Source: Octopus vulgaris
Lineage: Eukaryota
Reading direction: 5' to 3'
Assembly: GCA_951406725.2 (NCBI GenBank)
Contig: OX597821.1
Coordinates: forward strand, 77,748,001-77,812,000
Length of the DNA stretch: 64,000 nt
Below, piece after piece: positions 493-16,000 of the stretch. Made by a program: the position numbers. The first letter of the stretch is position 1. Each line of letters starts with the position of its first letter.

Positions 493-3400
493 CTCTGTCT
501 GTCTCTCTCTGTCTCTCTCTCTCTCTCTCTCTGTCTGTTTGTCTCTCTCTGTATTTTTTAGAATAATAGATAAGGAAAACAGAGTAGACGGGTAAGCTTT
601 ATTTAGTTTGCAGCACATTCTGTCTTCCCTATCAATTACAACATACTAAATGTGCACCGAAGAATTCCTTACCTAAATCCTGCGGATGACACTTGGCAGC
701 CGTAAGTGGTAAACGTACTCTCAAGGCACACTCCCCGGGACATACCCAAAACAAAGTTGGGATATAACGTTTTAAAATCTCCTATCTAAATTTTAATTTA
801 AACAGGTGCAGGAGTGGCTGTGTGGTAGCTTGCTTTCCAACCACATGGTTCCGGGTTCAGTCCCACTGCATGGCACCTTGGGCCGACCAAAGCCTTGTGA
901 GTGGATTTGGTAGACGGAAATTGAAAGAAACCCGTCGTATATATAGATATGTATATGTATTTGCATGTATGTGTTTGTGTGTCTGTGTTTGTCCCACTAA
1001 CATCCCTTGACAACTGATGCTGATGTGTTTATGTCCCTGTAAGTTAGTAGTTCAGCAAAAAGAGACCGGTAGAATAAGTACTAGGCTTACAAAGACTAAG
1101 TCCTGGGGGTCGATTTGCTCGACTAAAGGTGGTGCTCCAGCATGGCCACAGTCAAATGACTGAAACAAGTAAAAGAATAAAAGAATATATATACACACAC
1201 ACACTCACATGAACATACATGTATCAGGTTGTTCATGAATACTACTCATAACATGTAGCAACCAAACCATGTGACATGTCTGCTGCCCAACAACCTAACT
1301 ACATTCTTTTGTGAAGATGGCACACCTAATTACAAAACTCAACATGCATGATTAAACTCTAACAATTAGTACTTTAATCAAATTTAATGAACGAAAATCC
1401 TTCATACCATTTCCCCGCCATAACCTACCATACAGTATAATTACCATTCAACAGAACTCTAGTTACCATTGAAAATTTTAAACTTAACCAGGGACTATAT
1501 AACATCAAAAGCCCAATGATGGCTCAGCTGACCACAACTTCAAAGTCACTGTCAAAACTATTCTTCTTGTTAAAGATTAATAAACATTATATATATATAT
1601 ATACTTCATTAAAAAGTAGTACAAATATCACAAAAACTGTTACTCAGAGTTTCACGTTCTCTTTTGTCAACAGTTTTGTTCTAAACAAAACTTTCTGATG
1701 AATAGGAACGTGAAACTCTGAGTAACAGTTTCTGTGGTATTTTTGCTGCTTTTTAATAAAGCATATTATTCTACCTTTGGTATTTGAGTACTATTTTTTT
1801 TGCCACCTTGTTCCACATTTATGTGCTTAGAGCTCCTACTTCTGCTGGTGACAAAGGGCATCTCGCTCAGAGTAAAAGTTAGACTGTATGATGCATGTGT
1901 ACAAACTGCCATGCTACATGGCAGTGAAACATGGGCCGTAACTGCTGAGGACATGCATAAGCTTGCAAGGAATGAAGCCAGTATGCTCTGCTGGATGTCT
2001 AATGTGAGTGTGCATACATGACAGAGTTTAAGCACCCTGAGAGAAAAGTTGGATTTAAGAAGCATCAGATATGGTGTGCAAGAGAGACGACTGCTGGTAT
2101 GGTCATGTGTTGTGAATGAATGAGGACAGCTGTGTGAAAAAGTGTCACGCTCTAGCAGTTGAGGGAATCTGTGGAAGAGGTAGACCCAGGAAAACTTGGG
2201 ATGAGGTGGTGAAGCACGACCTTCAAACATTGGGCCTTACCGAGGCAATGACTTGTGACCGGGACCTTTGGAGATATGCTGTGCTTGAGAAGACCTGACA
2301 ATCCAAGTGAGACCATAGCCCATGGCCTATGCCAGTGGGTGTAACCAGCCCATTTATGAATATCCCTCATTCATTGGACAATAAACCTTGATTGTGAAGA
2401 CCTATTGAGGCAAGTGAAATCAAAATTGCTGACGTGACCAAAGACAGTACCGCCTGATTGGTACACATCCGAATGTGGGGTGTAACCGGGCCACTTATGA
2501 GTATCCTTCATTCATTGGACAATGAACTTTGCTTGCAAAGACCTGTTGAGACAAGTGTAAACAAACCAAAATCGCTGATGTGGCTGATGACAGTACCACC
2601 TGATTGGTACTCATGCCAGTGGAACGTTAAAAGCACATCCATGTGTGATCGCTGCCAGGGCCACGAATTGGCTCCCGTACTGGTGACACGGGAAAAGCAC
2701 CATTCAAGCATGATCGTTACCAGTGTCAGCTTACCAGCACATGTGCCAGTGGTACATGTAAATATAAGTAGAAAAAAAAAAGAAAGTATTTTTGTATTCT
2801 TTAATGAAGGAGAAATCTCGTTCGTCTCTCAACCGCATAACCAATATTTTTAACTAAACTGTTCAATGTCTTTTCGTTTTATGTCGATTTTTTTTTTTTT
2901 TTGTCTTTAAAAAATTGTTTTTTGTTCTTTTTTTAAAATCTCCAGGAGGAAATTATTTATATGACCTGTCCTGAATTGCTGGCCTCTACTCTCTTCATGG
3001 AAGCTATGGACGACAATGAAGCCATAACCATTAAAGGCTTTGAGAAGTTCTCTGAGTTTTCTGGTTATGGAGAGAATTTGAAGTTCTCTGGAAACTACTG
3101 TGATAAGGCTTCTGTGAGTAACTCTGAATGCTGCATGTTTTCCTTAAATAGTCAGAATGTTTGGCGGTGCTTTGTTATCACCTATGGCAACAAGGAATAC
3201 ATTTAACTTTCATTGTTGTCGTCATTATCATTGTTATCACCACCACCACCACCACCACCACCACCATCATCATCATCATTTAATGTCCATTTTCCCTGCT
3301 GGTGTTGGGGTTGAACAGTTTGACAGGAGCTGGTATGGTCAGGGGCCATACCAGGTTCAATAGTCTGTTTGGGCTTGGTTTCTATGGCTTGATGCCTTTC

Positions 3401-13028: not shown

Positions 13029-16000
13029 GTGAGTGTATACATGCATACATACATACAGGTGTGTGTGTGTGTGTGTGTGTGTGTAGAGGCATGTGTCTTA
13101 GTGGTTAAAGGTGTTGCACTCATGGTCGTAAGATTGTGGTTTCAGTTCCTGGACTGGGTGATGCATTGTGTTCTTAAGCAAAACACTTCATTTCACTTTG
13201 CTCCAGTCCACTCAGCTGGCAAAAGCGAGTAGTTTGAGACTGACCAGTGTCCTGTTTGGGGGAATAATATATATGCGCCACAGAATCTGAGAAACCAGCC
13301 TCGTGAATGTGTAACTTGCGAAAGACTTTTGATCCTTTGATATATTTACACACACACACACACATGCACACAAACAATATGTTTCCACAGTGGGATTGAA
13401 TTAAGAACCATGAAGAGAAGCTATTCTTTTATTCCTCTATTTGCTTCAGTCATTTGTCTGTGGCCATACTGGAGCACCGCCTTTAGTTGAACAGGTAGAC
13501 ATCCCCTCCAGACTTATTCTTTGTAAGCCTAGTACTTATTCTATTGGTATCTTTTGCTGAAGCGCTAAGTTACGGAGACATAAACACTCCAACATATGTT
13601 GTGGTGGTGATGGGGTGGGGTCAAACACACACACAAACATATACATATATATATATACACGACAGGCTTCTTTCAGTTTCCCTCTACCAAATCCACTCAC
13701 AAGGCTTTGGTTGGCCTGAGGCTGCAGTAGAAGACACTTGCCCAAGGTGCCACACAGTGGGACTGAACCTGGAACCATGTGGCTGGTAAGCAAGCTACTT
13801 ACCACACAGCCACTCCTGCGCCTCTGTTTGCATATTATTTATAATTTCCCAGTTTCTGTATGAAAACGATATTCCCTGTCTCAATGTTGTTTCTCTTTCA
13901 TGTTTCAGTTTCCCGATGTGGTCAGCATTGTCCAAGCAAAGTGCTGGACTGTTGGTGATCTGATGTGTACTGTACATAAGTTCTGTAACCAGGCTCTTGA
14001 GCAGTTGGACTCTGAAGGAATAATTACATTAGATTTATTCGAAGAAGTCCTCATATCTGCCCATCGTTGTCGTCCTGTTCTTGAAATGTCTCCAGATGAC
14101 GCCACTGTTATTGCTGAAGTGCCTACAAGCGATTCCACTGTTGTCGACCTGCCACTTGAATATGTCACCTCTAGCAACAACAACAACAACAATGATGATG
14201 ATAATGGCAATGTTGTTCCGGCTGTATCCGAAAATGACCAAATCCTTCCTACCACTCTCCTCCCTTCTGAGAGTGATACAGTAATTGATGACGATCCTGA
14301 CTGAATTCTTGCAGGAATGGATTGGGAATTTTTAAAAAATTGTCACTGATAGTCAGAGGTTAACTTTTTTTTCTCAGTTTTTTTTTTTTTTTTTTTTTTT
14401 CACCTTCCCACTGGCTCTGTTATGGTTGCTGCTTCTCAACTTCTTCTTTCTGAAAGTACCAAGATGCTATAAAGAAAGAAAGAAGATATAGAACCAAAAC
14501 AAATATGAAAGCGAAGAATCACTTTGTATGTTCATCTTTGTTATGGATGTCCATTTTTTAGAGTAGGAGAGATAGACTGGAGTTGTTGCAATAAGGATGG
14601 GCGTATACTGTTTACCCCGTCCTTGATGTGTTGCTTAAGATTATTCTGTTACCTTTTGGGCGAAGGTACGTTGCTGCTGTTGCCACAGAATGTATTGTTT
14701 TTTCTTTTACTGTTGAAAAACCCTGCCGAGTCATTGTTTCCTGAATCCAGTTGCCAGTATGGTTGCATTTCAAGATAAAGATCCTGTAAATGTTTGAAAA
14801 AGAAGTGTTTAAGTTTGCGAACCAAATTTGTATGAAATCTTACTCTTGTCAGTAATGGAATGCTTTCAACTGAAAGTTCAAAAAGGGAAAAAAAAATGGT
14901 TGGTACCAACAACCAGAATGTCTACTTAAATGTTTGTTTACCAAAAGCCTGTGTATAGTAAAACAAAATACAAAAAAAAAAAAATCTGAAGAATTAACTT
15001 TCTATTTTCTTAATATGTTTATTTATTATTTTGTTATCTTTTATTATTTGAGTTTAGTGAACGAGAATATAGTTTTGTTGATCTTGTTTGTGTCTTGGAC
15101 TAATTCTTGCTGCCAAAAATGGTTGTTTTGAATAAACACCTCTTCTCCCATTCCAAAAATAGATGAAAAAAAAATGTAAAAAAATTGCAAAATTTGCTAT
15201 TCATAAAATATTTTGGATTATTATCACCTGACTAATTAATGCAAGTGATAATGATGATAATAATTGTGGGGAACTATCATAGAATTAAAAAACAAAAAAT
15301 ATACATATATTTTGCCTGTTTTTTTTTTTAATTTGTATGTTTTATGATGTGTTTTCATGAGTCAGAACATGTCTATCACTTCTTAAAAGGCTACATTTAA
15401 AACTAGGCAGTGAAATAATTTAAGCTGTTTTGTGTCATCTCAACTTGAAAAAAACTTTTTTTTAAAATCAACCCTTCCCACAAAAAAAATTGAACTAAAT
15501 TAAACTAAAATAAAAAGAAAAACAATAAAAATTCTTACCAAAAACGAAACAGCTGATCAGAGGGAAATATTAGCTGCTAGCTGAAACTATTTTATTTCAT
15601 CTTCTCTCTCTAGTGTCTCGTTTAAAACCCAGTTGTATTAATAAATGTTTGTAATTGTAAAAGAAAAAAAAAGAAAAAACTGAACAACAAAAAATCTCTA
15701 ATCAGTTTTAAATGTAATGAGAAGGTAAAACAGAATATATTATATTTTATGTTAAAGTTTTAAAACTTAGGCATTGTGTATGGAACTCCATAAATGAATA
15801 ATTAAAACATTATTATTATTATGATTATTATTATTATTATTATTTGTGTTTTGAAGGAGTGGACACTTGTTTGTGGCTTGTAAGTTTTCTTTAGCATTTG
15901 TTTTATTAGTGTTCCAAATTTTGTTGGACTGCTCACTAAATAACCCAGCTCACTGCAAGCAAATTGAGCTGATTTGGTGGGAATTCTCCCTTTAACCCTT

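Follow-up and report, generated by a model that had tools for sequence, protein, structure and literature searches.

The analysed window, 64,000 nucleotides of Octopus vulgaris contig OX597821.1 (positions 77,748,001 to 77,812,000, forward strand; assembly GCA_951406725.2), is, judged from its sequence, the site of the 3' five exons of the octopus orthologue of Octopus bimaculoides LOC106877645. We read the gene as a mollusc PARG paralogue whose macro domain is split by a disordered, AKAP-like insert, and as a protostome relative of the kinase-anchoring proteins AKAP3, AKAP4, AKAP11 and SPHKAP; the probability that this reading holds as a whole is put at about 0.55. The split PARG domain is carried by the gene model, by Pfam and structural alignments and by a family of full-length relatives with the same arrangement. 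The kinship with AKAPs depends on docking-type helices, sub-threshold profile matches and published links between the two protein families.

Five exons, A to E, were placed on the + strand from stop-to-stop frames and reading of the sequence, and were checked by script. Acceptors are AG, donors are GT, and the phases agree throughout. Their translations map end to end on isoform X2 of LOC106877645 (P0001, 1397 residues; 97% identity to exon C), so the NCBI model of the sister species has the identical four junctions.

2946-3113, + strand: exon A, 56 codons, splice sites and phase checked; 56/56 residues identical to P0001 274-329
4490-4844, + strand: exon B, 118 codons plus 1 nucleotide (part of a split Gly codon), donor GT at 4845; 113/118 residues identical to P0001 330-447
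5702-8016, + strand: exon C, 2 nucleotides plus 771 codons, the bulk of the insert; 747/771 residues identical to P0001 449-1217
11917-12060, + strand: exon D, 48 codons; 48/48 residues identical to P0001 1218-1265
13909-14304, + strand: exon E, 131 codons plus TGA; 123/131 residues identical to P0001 1266-1397

The codon split across the B/C junction, which is in phase 1, is GGG; the intron separating D from E is in phase 0 and follows ...KLVR, with FPD after it. P0001 residues 1-272 have no match within the window, which contains no N, so the gene's 5' exons precede the window start. The window sequence was searched one exon at a time, never as a joined model, and statements on the whole protein refer to P0001 and its relatives. 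A GT at 4682-4683 inside exon B is in phase 0 and does not fit exon C. By phase arithmetic alone, it could be joined in frame to the phase-0 acceptor of exon D (11917), a putative junction that would produce an insert-skipping protein.

The exons on either side of the insert encode pieces of the PARG macro domain. Exon A contains EEIIYMTCPELLASTLFMEAMDDNE and FSEFSGYG and forms a macro-domain piece of the type EEI...CPEL...SGYG. The Q of QEE is encoded in the exon before A, outside the window, and exon A opens with EE. Exon B reads AINTL...RDLNKCLVGF; its first 44 codons (4490-4621) close the N-half of the domain at LNKCLVGF and the remainder opens the insert. The macro domain resumes in exon D, where SSCGIPGSN stands in place of the relatives' TGNWGCGAFGGD and is followed by PQLEVLLQWIVAS...FICYT. 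Exon E supplies the final PARG-like helices (KCWTVGDL...LDLFEEVLIS), after which come a low-complexity, acidic tail and the TGA. Exon A matched Pfam PARG_cat_C above the cut-off (profile positions 49-109, E value 5.7e-19), while exon B (106-158, 5.1e-5) and exon D (170-203, 1.7e-3) matched it under the curated cut-off when taken alone. The three matches are colinear in the profile. No Pfam family was identified in exons C and E. Residues 1336-1374 of Haliotis protein P0004 align to exon D (tblastn, E 1e-4) and its residues 1372-1426 align to window positions 13900-14052 in exon E (tblastn, E 1.4e-6).

The same division is seen at the level of the whole protein. P0001 matches PARG_cat_C in two stretches (E 1.3e-44) and PARG_cat_N at residues 97-213 (E 1.4e-22), and PARG_cat_N together with a two-stretch PARG_cat_C was found in all six relatives that were scanned whole. 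Against the solved PARG structure with PDB code 8adj, Haliotis residues 98-375 align with 176-458 and residues 1329-1414 with 468-553. In 8adj, LNKAYIGF ends at 458 and VATGNWGCGAFGGD begins at 468, so about 950 Haliotis residues replace nine in the solved enzyme. The insertion falls after the strand that ends in LNK..VGF and ahead of the diphosphate-binding loop. Counted from the codon following LVGF (4621) up to the site of the loop in exon D, the insert comprises about 855 residues in the window, compared with 848 in P0001.

When 1.84 billion representatives were searched by phmmer with exon C as the query, 37 matches resulted (E <= 0.001), all of them members of this split-PARG family. Exon C retrieved 11 proteins of 1380-1622 residues, every one with both PARG Pfam domains, among them proteins from cephalopods (Octopus and Argonauta), gastropods (two Haliotis, Gigantopelta and Lottia) and bivalves (Tegillarca, Pinctada and Sinanodonta). 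PARG parts flank an insert of about 850-1130 residues in each of the 19 full-length relatives found. A further 35 proteins were collected, of which eight have PARG_cat_C, eight have PARG_cat_N, one has a weak AKAP_110 match and one a weak SmAKAP match; the others resemble single-exon fragments. Named members are all molluscs, and the family appears to consist of conserved mollusc PARG paralogues. A quick tree constructed from 18 of the 19 full-length rows, with no outgroup and a midpoint root, contained cephalopod, gastropod and bivalve groups, with three long-branch members outside all three. P0010 (Lottia gigantea LOTGIDRAFT_170851) was excluded from the tree on account of a gene model with a repeat-like stretch: at about residues 260-540, near-identical units (RDEICRMPRVNSILYIVG...) replace the GGG loop region, probably repeat or intronic sequence that the model translates. 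The Haliotis proteins P0004 and P0005 are annotated by NCBI as 'serine-rich adhesin for platelets-like', a name at odds with their PARG domains and probably drawn from the Ser-rich insert.

The family also bears on the question of whether the large exon could come from another, nested transcript and be in phase by appearance only. The octopus model is built from genomic sequence, and splicing straight from the phase-0 GT at 4682 to exon D would be possible. Against such an artefact, all four junctions keep phase and have good splice sites, and they recur in the NCBI orthologue model. The order of N-half, insert and C-half is common to 19 full-length proteins of independent annotations. In addition, P0018, a single uninterrupted open reading frame, unites the N-half of the macro domain (PARG_cat_C 49-149) with the RRRSS patch of the insert. 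We regard an artefact of this kind as very improbable.

Exon C contains 13.9% Ser, 14.5% Asp plus Glu and 7.5% Lys plus Arg, and has no match in the PDB at E <= 10. An AlphaFold2 model of the exon, built with a 38-row alignment, has a mean predicted local distance difference test score (pLDDT) of 52 and a predicted template modelling score of 0.24, with no globular fold and 13 helices of at least 13 residues. On this model the insert is mostly disordered, with isolated helices. The following elements were distinguished in it.

5731-5784, + strand: helix 1 of the insert, DIDSFAKRLTKEILTESL; predicted helix 11-30, block pLDDT 74/71
5947-6096, + strand: most conserved insert patch, LDVDY.DW..NFRRRSSNLSD..SRRSS.STRYSS...SSDFEELYESF; two tandem RRxS sites, then an acidic and Ser-rich run
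6157-6216, + strand: amphipathic helix VQDFAANFIENLLQESAAIV; block pLDDT 81-88, the model's most confident part; one match to the AKAP docking pattern
6706-6765, + strand: amphipathic helix LTAVADKLVNQIFREAKAIV; predicted helix 335-356; two overlapping AKAP-pattern matches
7291-7341, + strand: SGFRD..LS.FAEELM motif, copy 1; G531, F532, L537 and S538 nearly invariant in 38 rows; consensus RRSS.GFRDP.LS.FAEEL
7417-7470, + strand: motif copy 2, SGFKDNTLASFEDELLRS; consensus S.SGF.D..LA..E.EL
7624-7686, + strand: amphipathic helix LSTFADQVSEEIMYESFVDIF; predicted helix 638-661, block pLDDT about 71; FAD..A..I consensus kept
7738-7797, + strand: candidate docking helix for the regulatory (R) subunit of protein kinase A (PKA), LEMIADEIAKNVIHVAILTL; predicted helix 673-699; three overlapping AKAP-pattern matches
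7933-7992, + strand: last insert helix, LNDFYENTSKEIIESAILTV; predicted helix 744-770; one AKAP-pattern match

The patch at 5947-6096 is the top-scoring stretch in nearly all of the 37 phmmer matches. Its residues R94, R95, R96, S97, S98, L100, S101 and D102 are invariant in the 38 alignment rows, and RRRSS was found in all 46 family proteins collected. The two tandem RRxS sites are what we take to be PKA consensus sites, which the insert would present as substrates (RRRSS and SRRSS), and the insert of the family is probably regulated by phosphorylation. Elsewhere in the insert, the DFA..L...L.EGT consensus of the helix at 6157-6216 is kept in family alignments and the YA.ELA..VI..AL consensus of the helix at 7738-7797 is conserved family-wide. 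The two motif copies share the form SGF[RK]D..L..F.[ED]EL.

Much of the first-pass annotation of the locus is borne out by these results. It had proposed five phase-consistent exons encoding one protein, which agrees with the splice sites, the phases and the end-to-end mapping on P0001, and it had quoted PARG-like motifs that are present in exons A, B, D and E, with PARG_cat_C colinear on A, B and D. The acidic, Ser-rich insert of about 850 residues with amphipathic helices was confirmed in length, composition and predicted helices, and the short loop said to follow LNKAY.GF in canonical PARG is found in 8adj, from 458 to 468.

Several features of the insert and of the C-terminal part (C-part) of the protein resemble those of AKAPs. 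An AKAP docking pattern has seven matches in exon C, compared with an expected 1.0 +/- 1.1 (none of 1000 shuffles reached seven), although the pattern is degenerate and may be enriched by any set of amphipathic helices. The stretch of P0003, a 65%-identical relative, that is equivalent to 5731-5784 matched Pfam SmAKAP with E 1.6e-5 and 26.3 bits, against a cut-off of 27. Other SmAKAP matches, all below the cut-off, were obtained for P0012 (E 2.5e-4), P0021 (0.036), P0045 (0.44) and P0006 (0.75). RII_binding_1 matched P0015 at residues 1105-1123, late in its insert (E 0.014; 16 bits, cut-off 18.8). AKAP_110, a profile of 690 positions, matched P0022 over positions 608-664 (E 5.9e-4; 18.7 bits, curated cut-off 25) and, over positions 608-672, all five non-cephalopod C-parts searched (E 8.5e-4 to 0.24), with P0009 at the top (18.2 bits) and Lottia at E 0.017. 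In six relatives this part of the profile aligns below the cut-off to PQLK..LQW[IM]AAS..W[TS]VG, an alignment that lends indirect support to the AKAP motif cited in the first-pass annotation. Atlas feature neighbours of the C-part were AKAP3, AKAP3 and AKAP4 (0.82-0.81), and those of exon C were two fish clusters (0.89 and 0.87) followed by AKAP4 (0.87, 188 shared features) and AKAP11 (0.85); these are leads only, in a range (0.81-0.89) often reached by shuffled proteins.

An FFAT-like core, [DE][FY].D[AT].[DES] (e.g. DFTDALD), was identified ahead of the last insert helix in 11 of the 19 full-length relatives (P0004-P0007, P0009-P0011, P0013, P0015, P0021 and P0045) and in seven fragments, about 50 residues before the GNWGCG loop. 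It could mean tethering to the endoplasmic reticulum (ER) through VAP in the non-cephalopod members. The core is absent from all three cephalopods and from window positions 7900-7932.

The breadth of the docking pattern and the Atlas values reached by shuffled proteins both weigh against the reading as AKAP kin, as do the following results. None of the AKAP-type Pfam matches of the relatives reaches its cut-off. In the window itself, AKAP_110, RII_binding_1 and SmAKAP matched none of the five exons at E <= 10, and none of seven helix segments of exon C searched against Pfam, including 5731-5784 and 7738-7797, gave a match. AKAP_110 was found in neither of two cephalopod C-parts, and no AKAP_110-only protein occurs among the 37 phmmer matches to exon C. 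The AKAP_110 matches may reflect shared PARG ancestry alone. On the PARG side, octopus exon D alone had no match in the PDB, exon E alone matched no PARG and gave one chance match, and the PARG identity of these two exons is drawn from the family alignment and a weak Pfam match.

These results give weight to another explanation, in which the gene is a lineage-specific PARG paralogue, the insert is a regulatory or localisation loop unrelated to AKAPs, the helices are generic and the similarity to AKAP_110 comes from shared PARG ancestry. All AKAP-type matches are sub-threshold, with none in the window. The exon C search yielded no AKAP, a length-matched search with exon C returned six family fragments and no AKAP, and a region search with the P0009 C-part (1292-1382) retrieved only itself among 57 candidates. 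The non-cephalopod C-parts score 62-70 bits with PARG_cat_C versus 10-18 bits with AKAP_110, which places the protein far nearer to PARG than to vertebrate AKAPs, and the named members of the family are all molluscs. This explanation has difficulty with the recurrence of three PKA-anchor Pfam families across members, and with the appearance of AKAP_110-family clusters among the nearest Atlas neighbours of the insert and the C-part separately. A cyclostome gene tabulated in PMC11788884 with both PARG_cat and AKAP_110 is also hard to explain if the two were never in one gene. An insert unrelated to AKAPs is thus possible, though we consider it rather unlikely.

The first-pass annotation had gone further and described a PKA-anchoring scaffold built inside a PARG fold, much closer to PARG than vertebrate AKAPs are, from which the AKAP family would descend. 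The split PARG domain, its encoding by one gene and its greater nearness to PARG stand, and the AKAP-PARG link was already in print (PMC11377751). Its idea of comparing the parts with PARG and AKAP_110 profiles, carried out here with Pfam exon by exon, had a divided outcome, with PARG_cat_C on A, B and D and AKAP_110 on none. PKA anchoring by the insert is only suggested, as is the descent of the AKAP family from a split PARG. If the insert does anchor PKA, it would dock the regulatory subunits by one or more helices, for which 7738-7797 is the best candidate.

The state of the active site differs within the family. The PARG catalytic signature is GGG-X(6-8)-QEE, and GNWGCGAFGGD forms the diphosphate-binding loop. 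Among the full-length proteins, GGG..QEE is present in 11 of 19 and GGH..QEE in the three cephalopods, the other five being unmatched by the pattern used; the cephalopod orthologues read GGH....GRCQEE. GNWGCGAF is kept in 14 of the 19, is degenerate in four (the three cephalopods and P0033) and was not found in P0040. Exon D of the window lacks the GNWGCGAFGGD loop and has SSCGIPGSN at its place. Since most members conserve both half-sites of the active centre, the halves on either side of the insert would be expected to reassemble into one macro fold. Decay of the same half-sites in cephalopods suggests that the octopus protein has lost its enzymatic activity. With the loop replaced, and GGG changed to GGH in the orthologues, the cephalopod protein would be a scaffold or at most a reader of ADP-ribose, and not a glycohydrolase.

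The protein could instead be an active PARG that still hydrolyses poly(ADP-ribose), with an insert that merely regulates or targets it. This would suit the non-cephalopod members, which include the proteins with GGG..QEE (11/19 read) and GNWGCGAF (14/19) and score strongly with PARG_cat_C (E 1e-45 to 1e-73). Against it stand the replacement of the diphosphate loop by SSCGIPGSN in the window and in cephalopod orthologues and GGH for GGG in the latter, provided that the motifs have the roles given above. For the octopus protein, retained hydrolysis therefore seems improbable.

The favoured reading, a split PARG paralogue with protostome kinship to AKAP3, AKAP4, AKAP11 and SPHKAP, would ally the gene with a vertebrate family whose PARG-derived C-terminus has been described before: in PMC11377751, the C-termini of the four proteins are given as remotely homologous to the PARG macro domain and the N-terminal PARG portion appears lost. 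A further precedent is the cyclostome gene group CGG08 'PARG_homolog' (Arctic lamprey g7740), which is listed with the domain pair PARG_cat and AKAP_110 in PMC11788884. The authors removed pairs overlapping in all species, so the two matches in g7740 should be separate. They attribute the pair to domain shuffling in the ancestor of cyclostomes, without further discussion, and report the limpet Lottia as lacking the pair at E<1e-3. The homology of the AKAP C-terminus with PARG is thus published and not new. The split mollusc family appears to be new; no publication on it was found in the literature searched, with supplements outside the scope.

Taken together, the cyclostome domain pair and the split mollusc family make it plausible that the AKAP_110 family originated from a split domain. 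The anchoring region may have arisen when a PARG paralogue acquired an insertion inside its macro domain before the protostome/deuterostome split, with gnathostomes later losing or blurring the N-half, a scenario that we advance only tentatively. The route from a glycohydrolase fold to the end of a kinase-anchoring protein is unexplained in print, and the family would offer an intermediate on a route with the insertion first and the loss of the N-half later. If this is true, a split-domain origin would have to replace the simple loss of the N-terminal part that has been proposed in print. Gastropods and bivalves would then have an apparently intact PARG site physically linked to helices that dock PKA, to tandem PKA sites and to an FFAT-like motif for ER tethering, joining ADP-ribose and cyclic AMP signalling in one protein. 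The decay of the cephalopod active site would parallel the decay completed by the vertebrate AKAPs. The same insert would sit in a probably active PARG in gastropods and bivalves and in a decayed one in cephalopods, a pair that may be useful for probing the coupling of ADP-ribose and PKA. If the kinship with AKAPs fails, the family would stand as an unusual PARG paralogue, confined to one lineage, with an exceptionally long insertion in a loop.

Other features were identified in the window outside the coding exons.

16350-16706, + strand: open reading frame fragment, ...FFLLFRMSLFEIITAKTNRYAKRK...WFPITLNEIK; no Pfam match at E<=0.01
18052-19700, - strand: decayed non-long-terminal-repeat retrotransposon; two adjacent open reading frames in different frames, Pfam RVT_1 E 4.5e-9 and 9.6e-7
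3148-3640, 12104-12900, 28792-29169, 36915-37310 and 46005-46860, both strands: short interspersed repeat (translations LQLDALPNANH and FYVPPAQ)
58754-61137: low-GC end of the window, made up of very long runs of simple sequence that translate as poly-I, poly-Y, poly-L and poly-S

The fragment at 16350-16706 resembles the remnant of a piggyBac-type transposase, which Pfam did not confirm. The short interspersed repeat lies in the introns of the gene and downstream of it, and the one copy tested had no Pfam match.

Compared with canonical PARG (8adj, 4a0d and 4fc2), the orthologues are colinear over PARG_cat_N and PARG_cat_C and keep QEE, the CPEL helix and the SGY motif. They differ in the length of the loop, which has nine residues in the canonical enzyme and about 850-1130 in the mollusc family, and the cephalopod members differ further in lacking GNWGCGAFGGD and in having GGH for GGG. 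The vertebrate AKAP_110 family is similar in placing a long Ser- and acid-rich region with amphipathic helices ahead of a PARG-macro-like C-terminal part, here encoded by exons D and E. The mollusc family stands apart in that all its AKAP_110 scores fall below the cut-off and no AKAP was recovered with its RRRSS patch. Known SmAKAP and RII_binding_1 docking helices are approached by the near-cut-off matches in relatives and by the pattern enrichment of exon C, with the window helices themselves unmatched. The FFAT-like core of 11 of the 19 relatives can be likened to the phospho-FFAT motif of SPHKAP, a paralogue of AKAP11 in which two RI-anchoring domains are also described; the FFAT peptide of ORP1 is SEDEFYDALS (PMC10460453). 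Cyclostome g7740, known here as a table row in PMC11788884, likewise unites AKAP-family sequence and a match to the PARG catalytic domain in one gene. A further difference from the vertebrate AKAPs is in the N-terminal PARG part, which appears lost in those proteins (PMC11377751) but is complete and strongly PARG-like in the orthologues described here.

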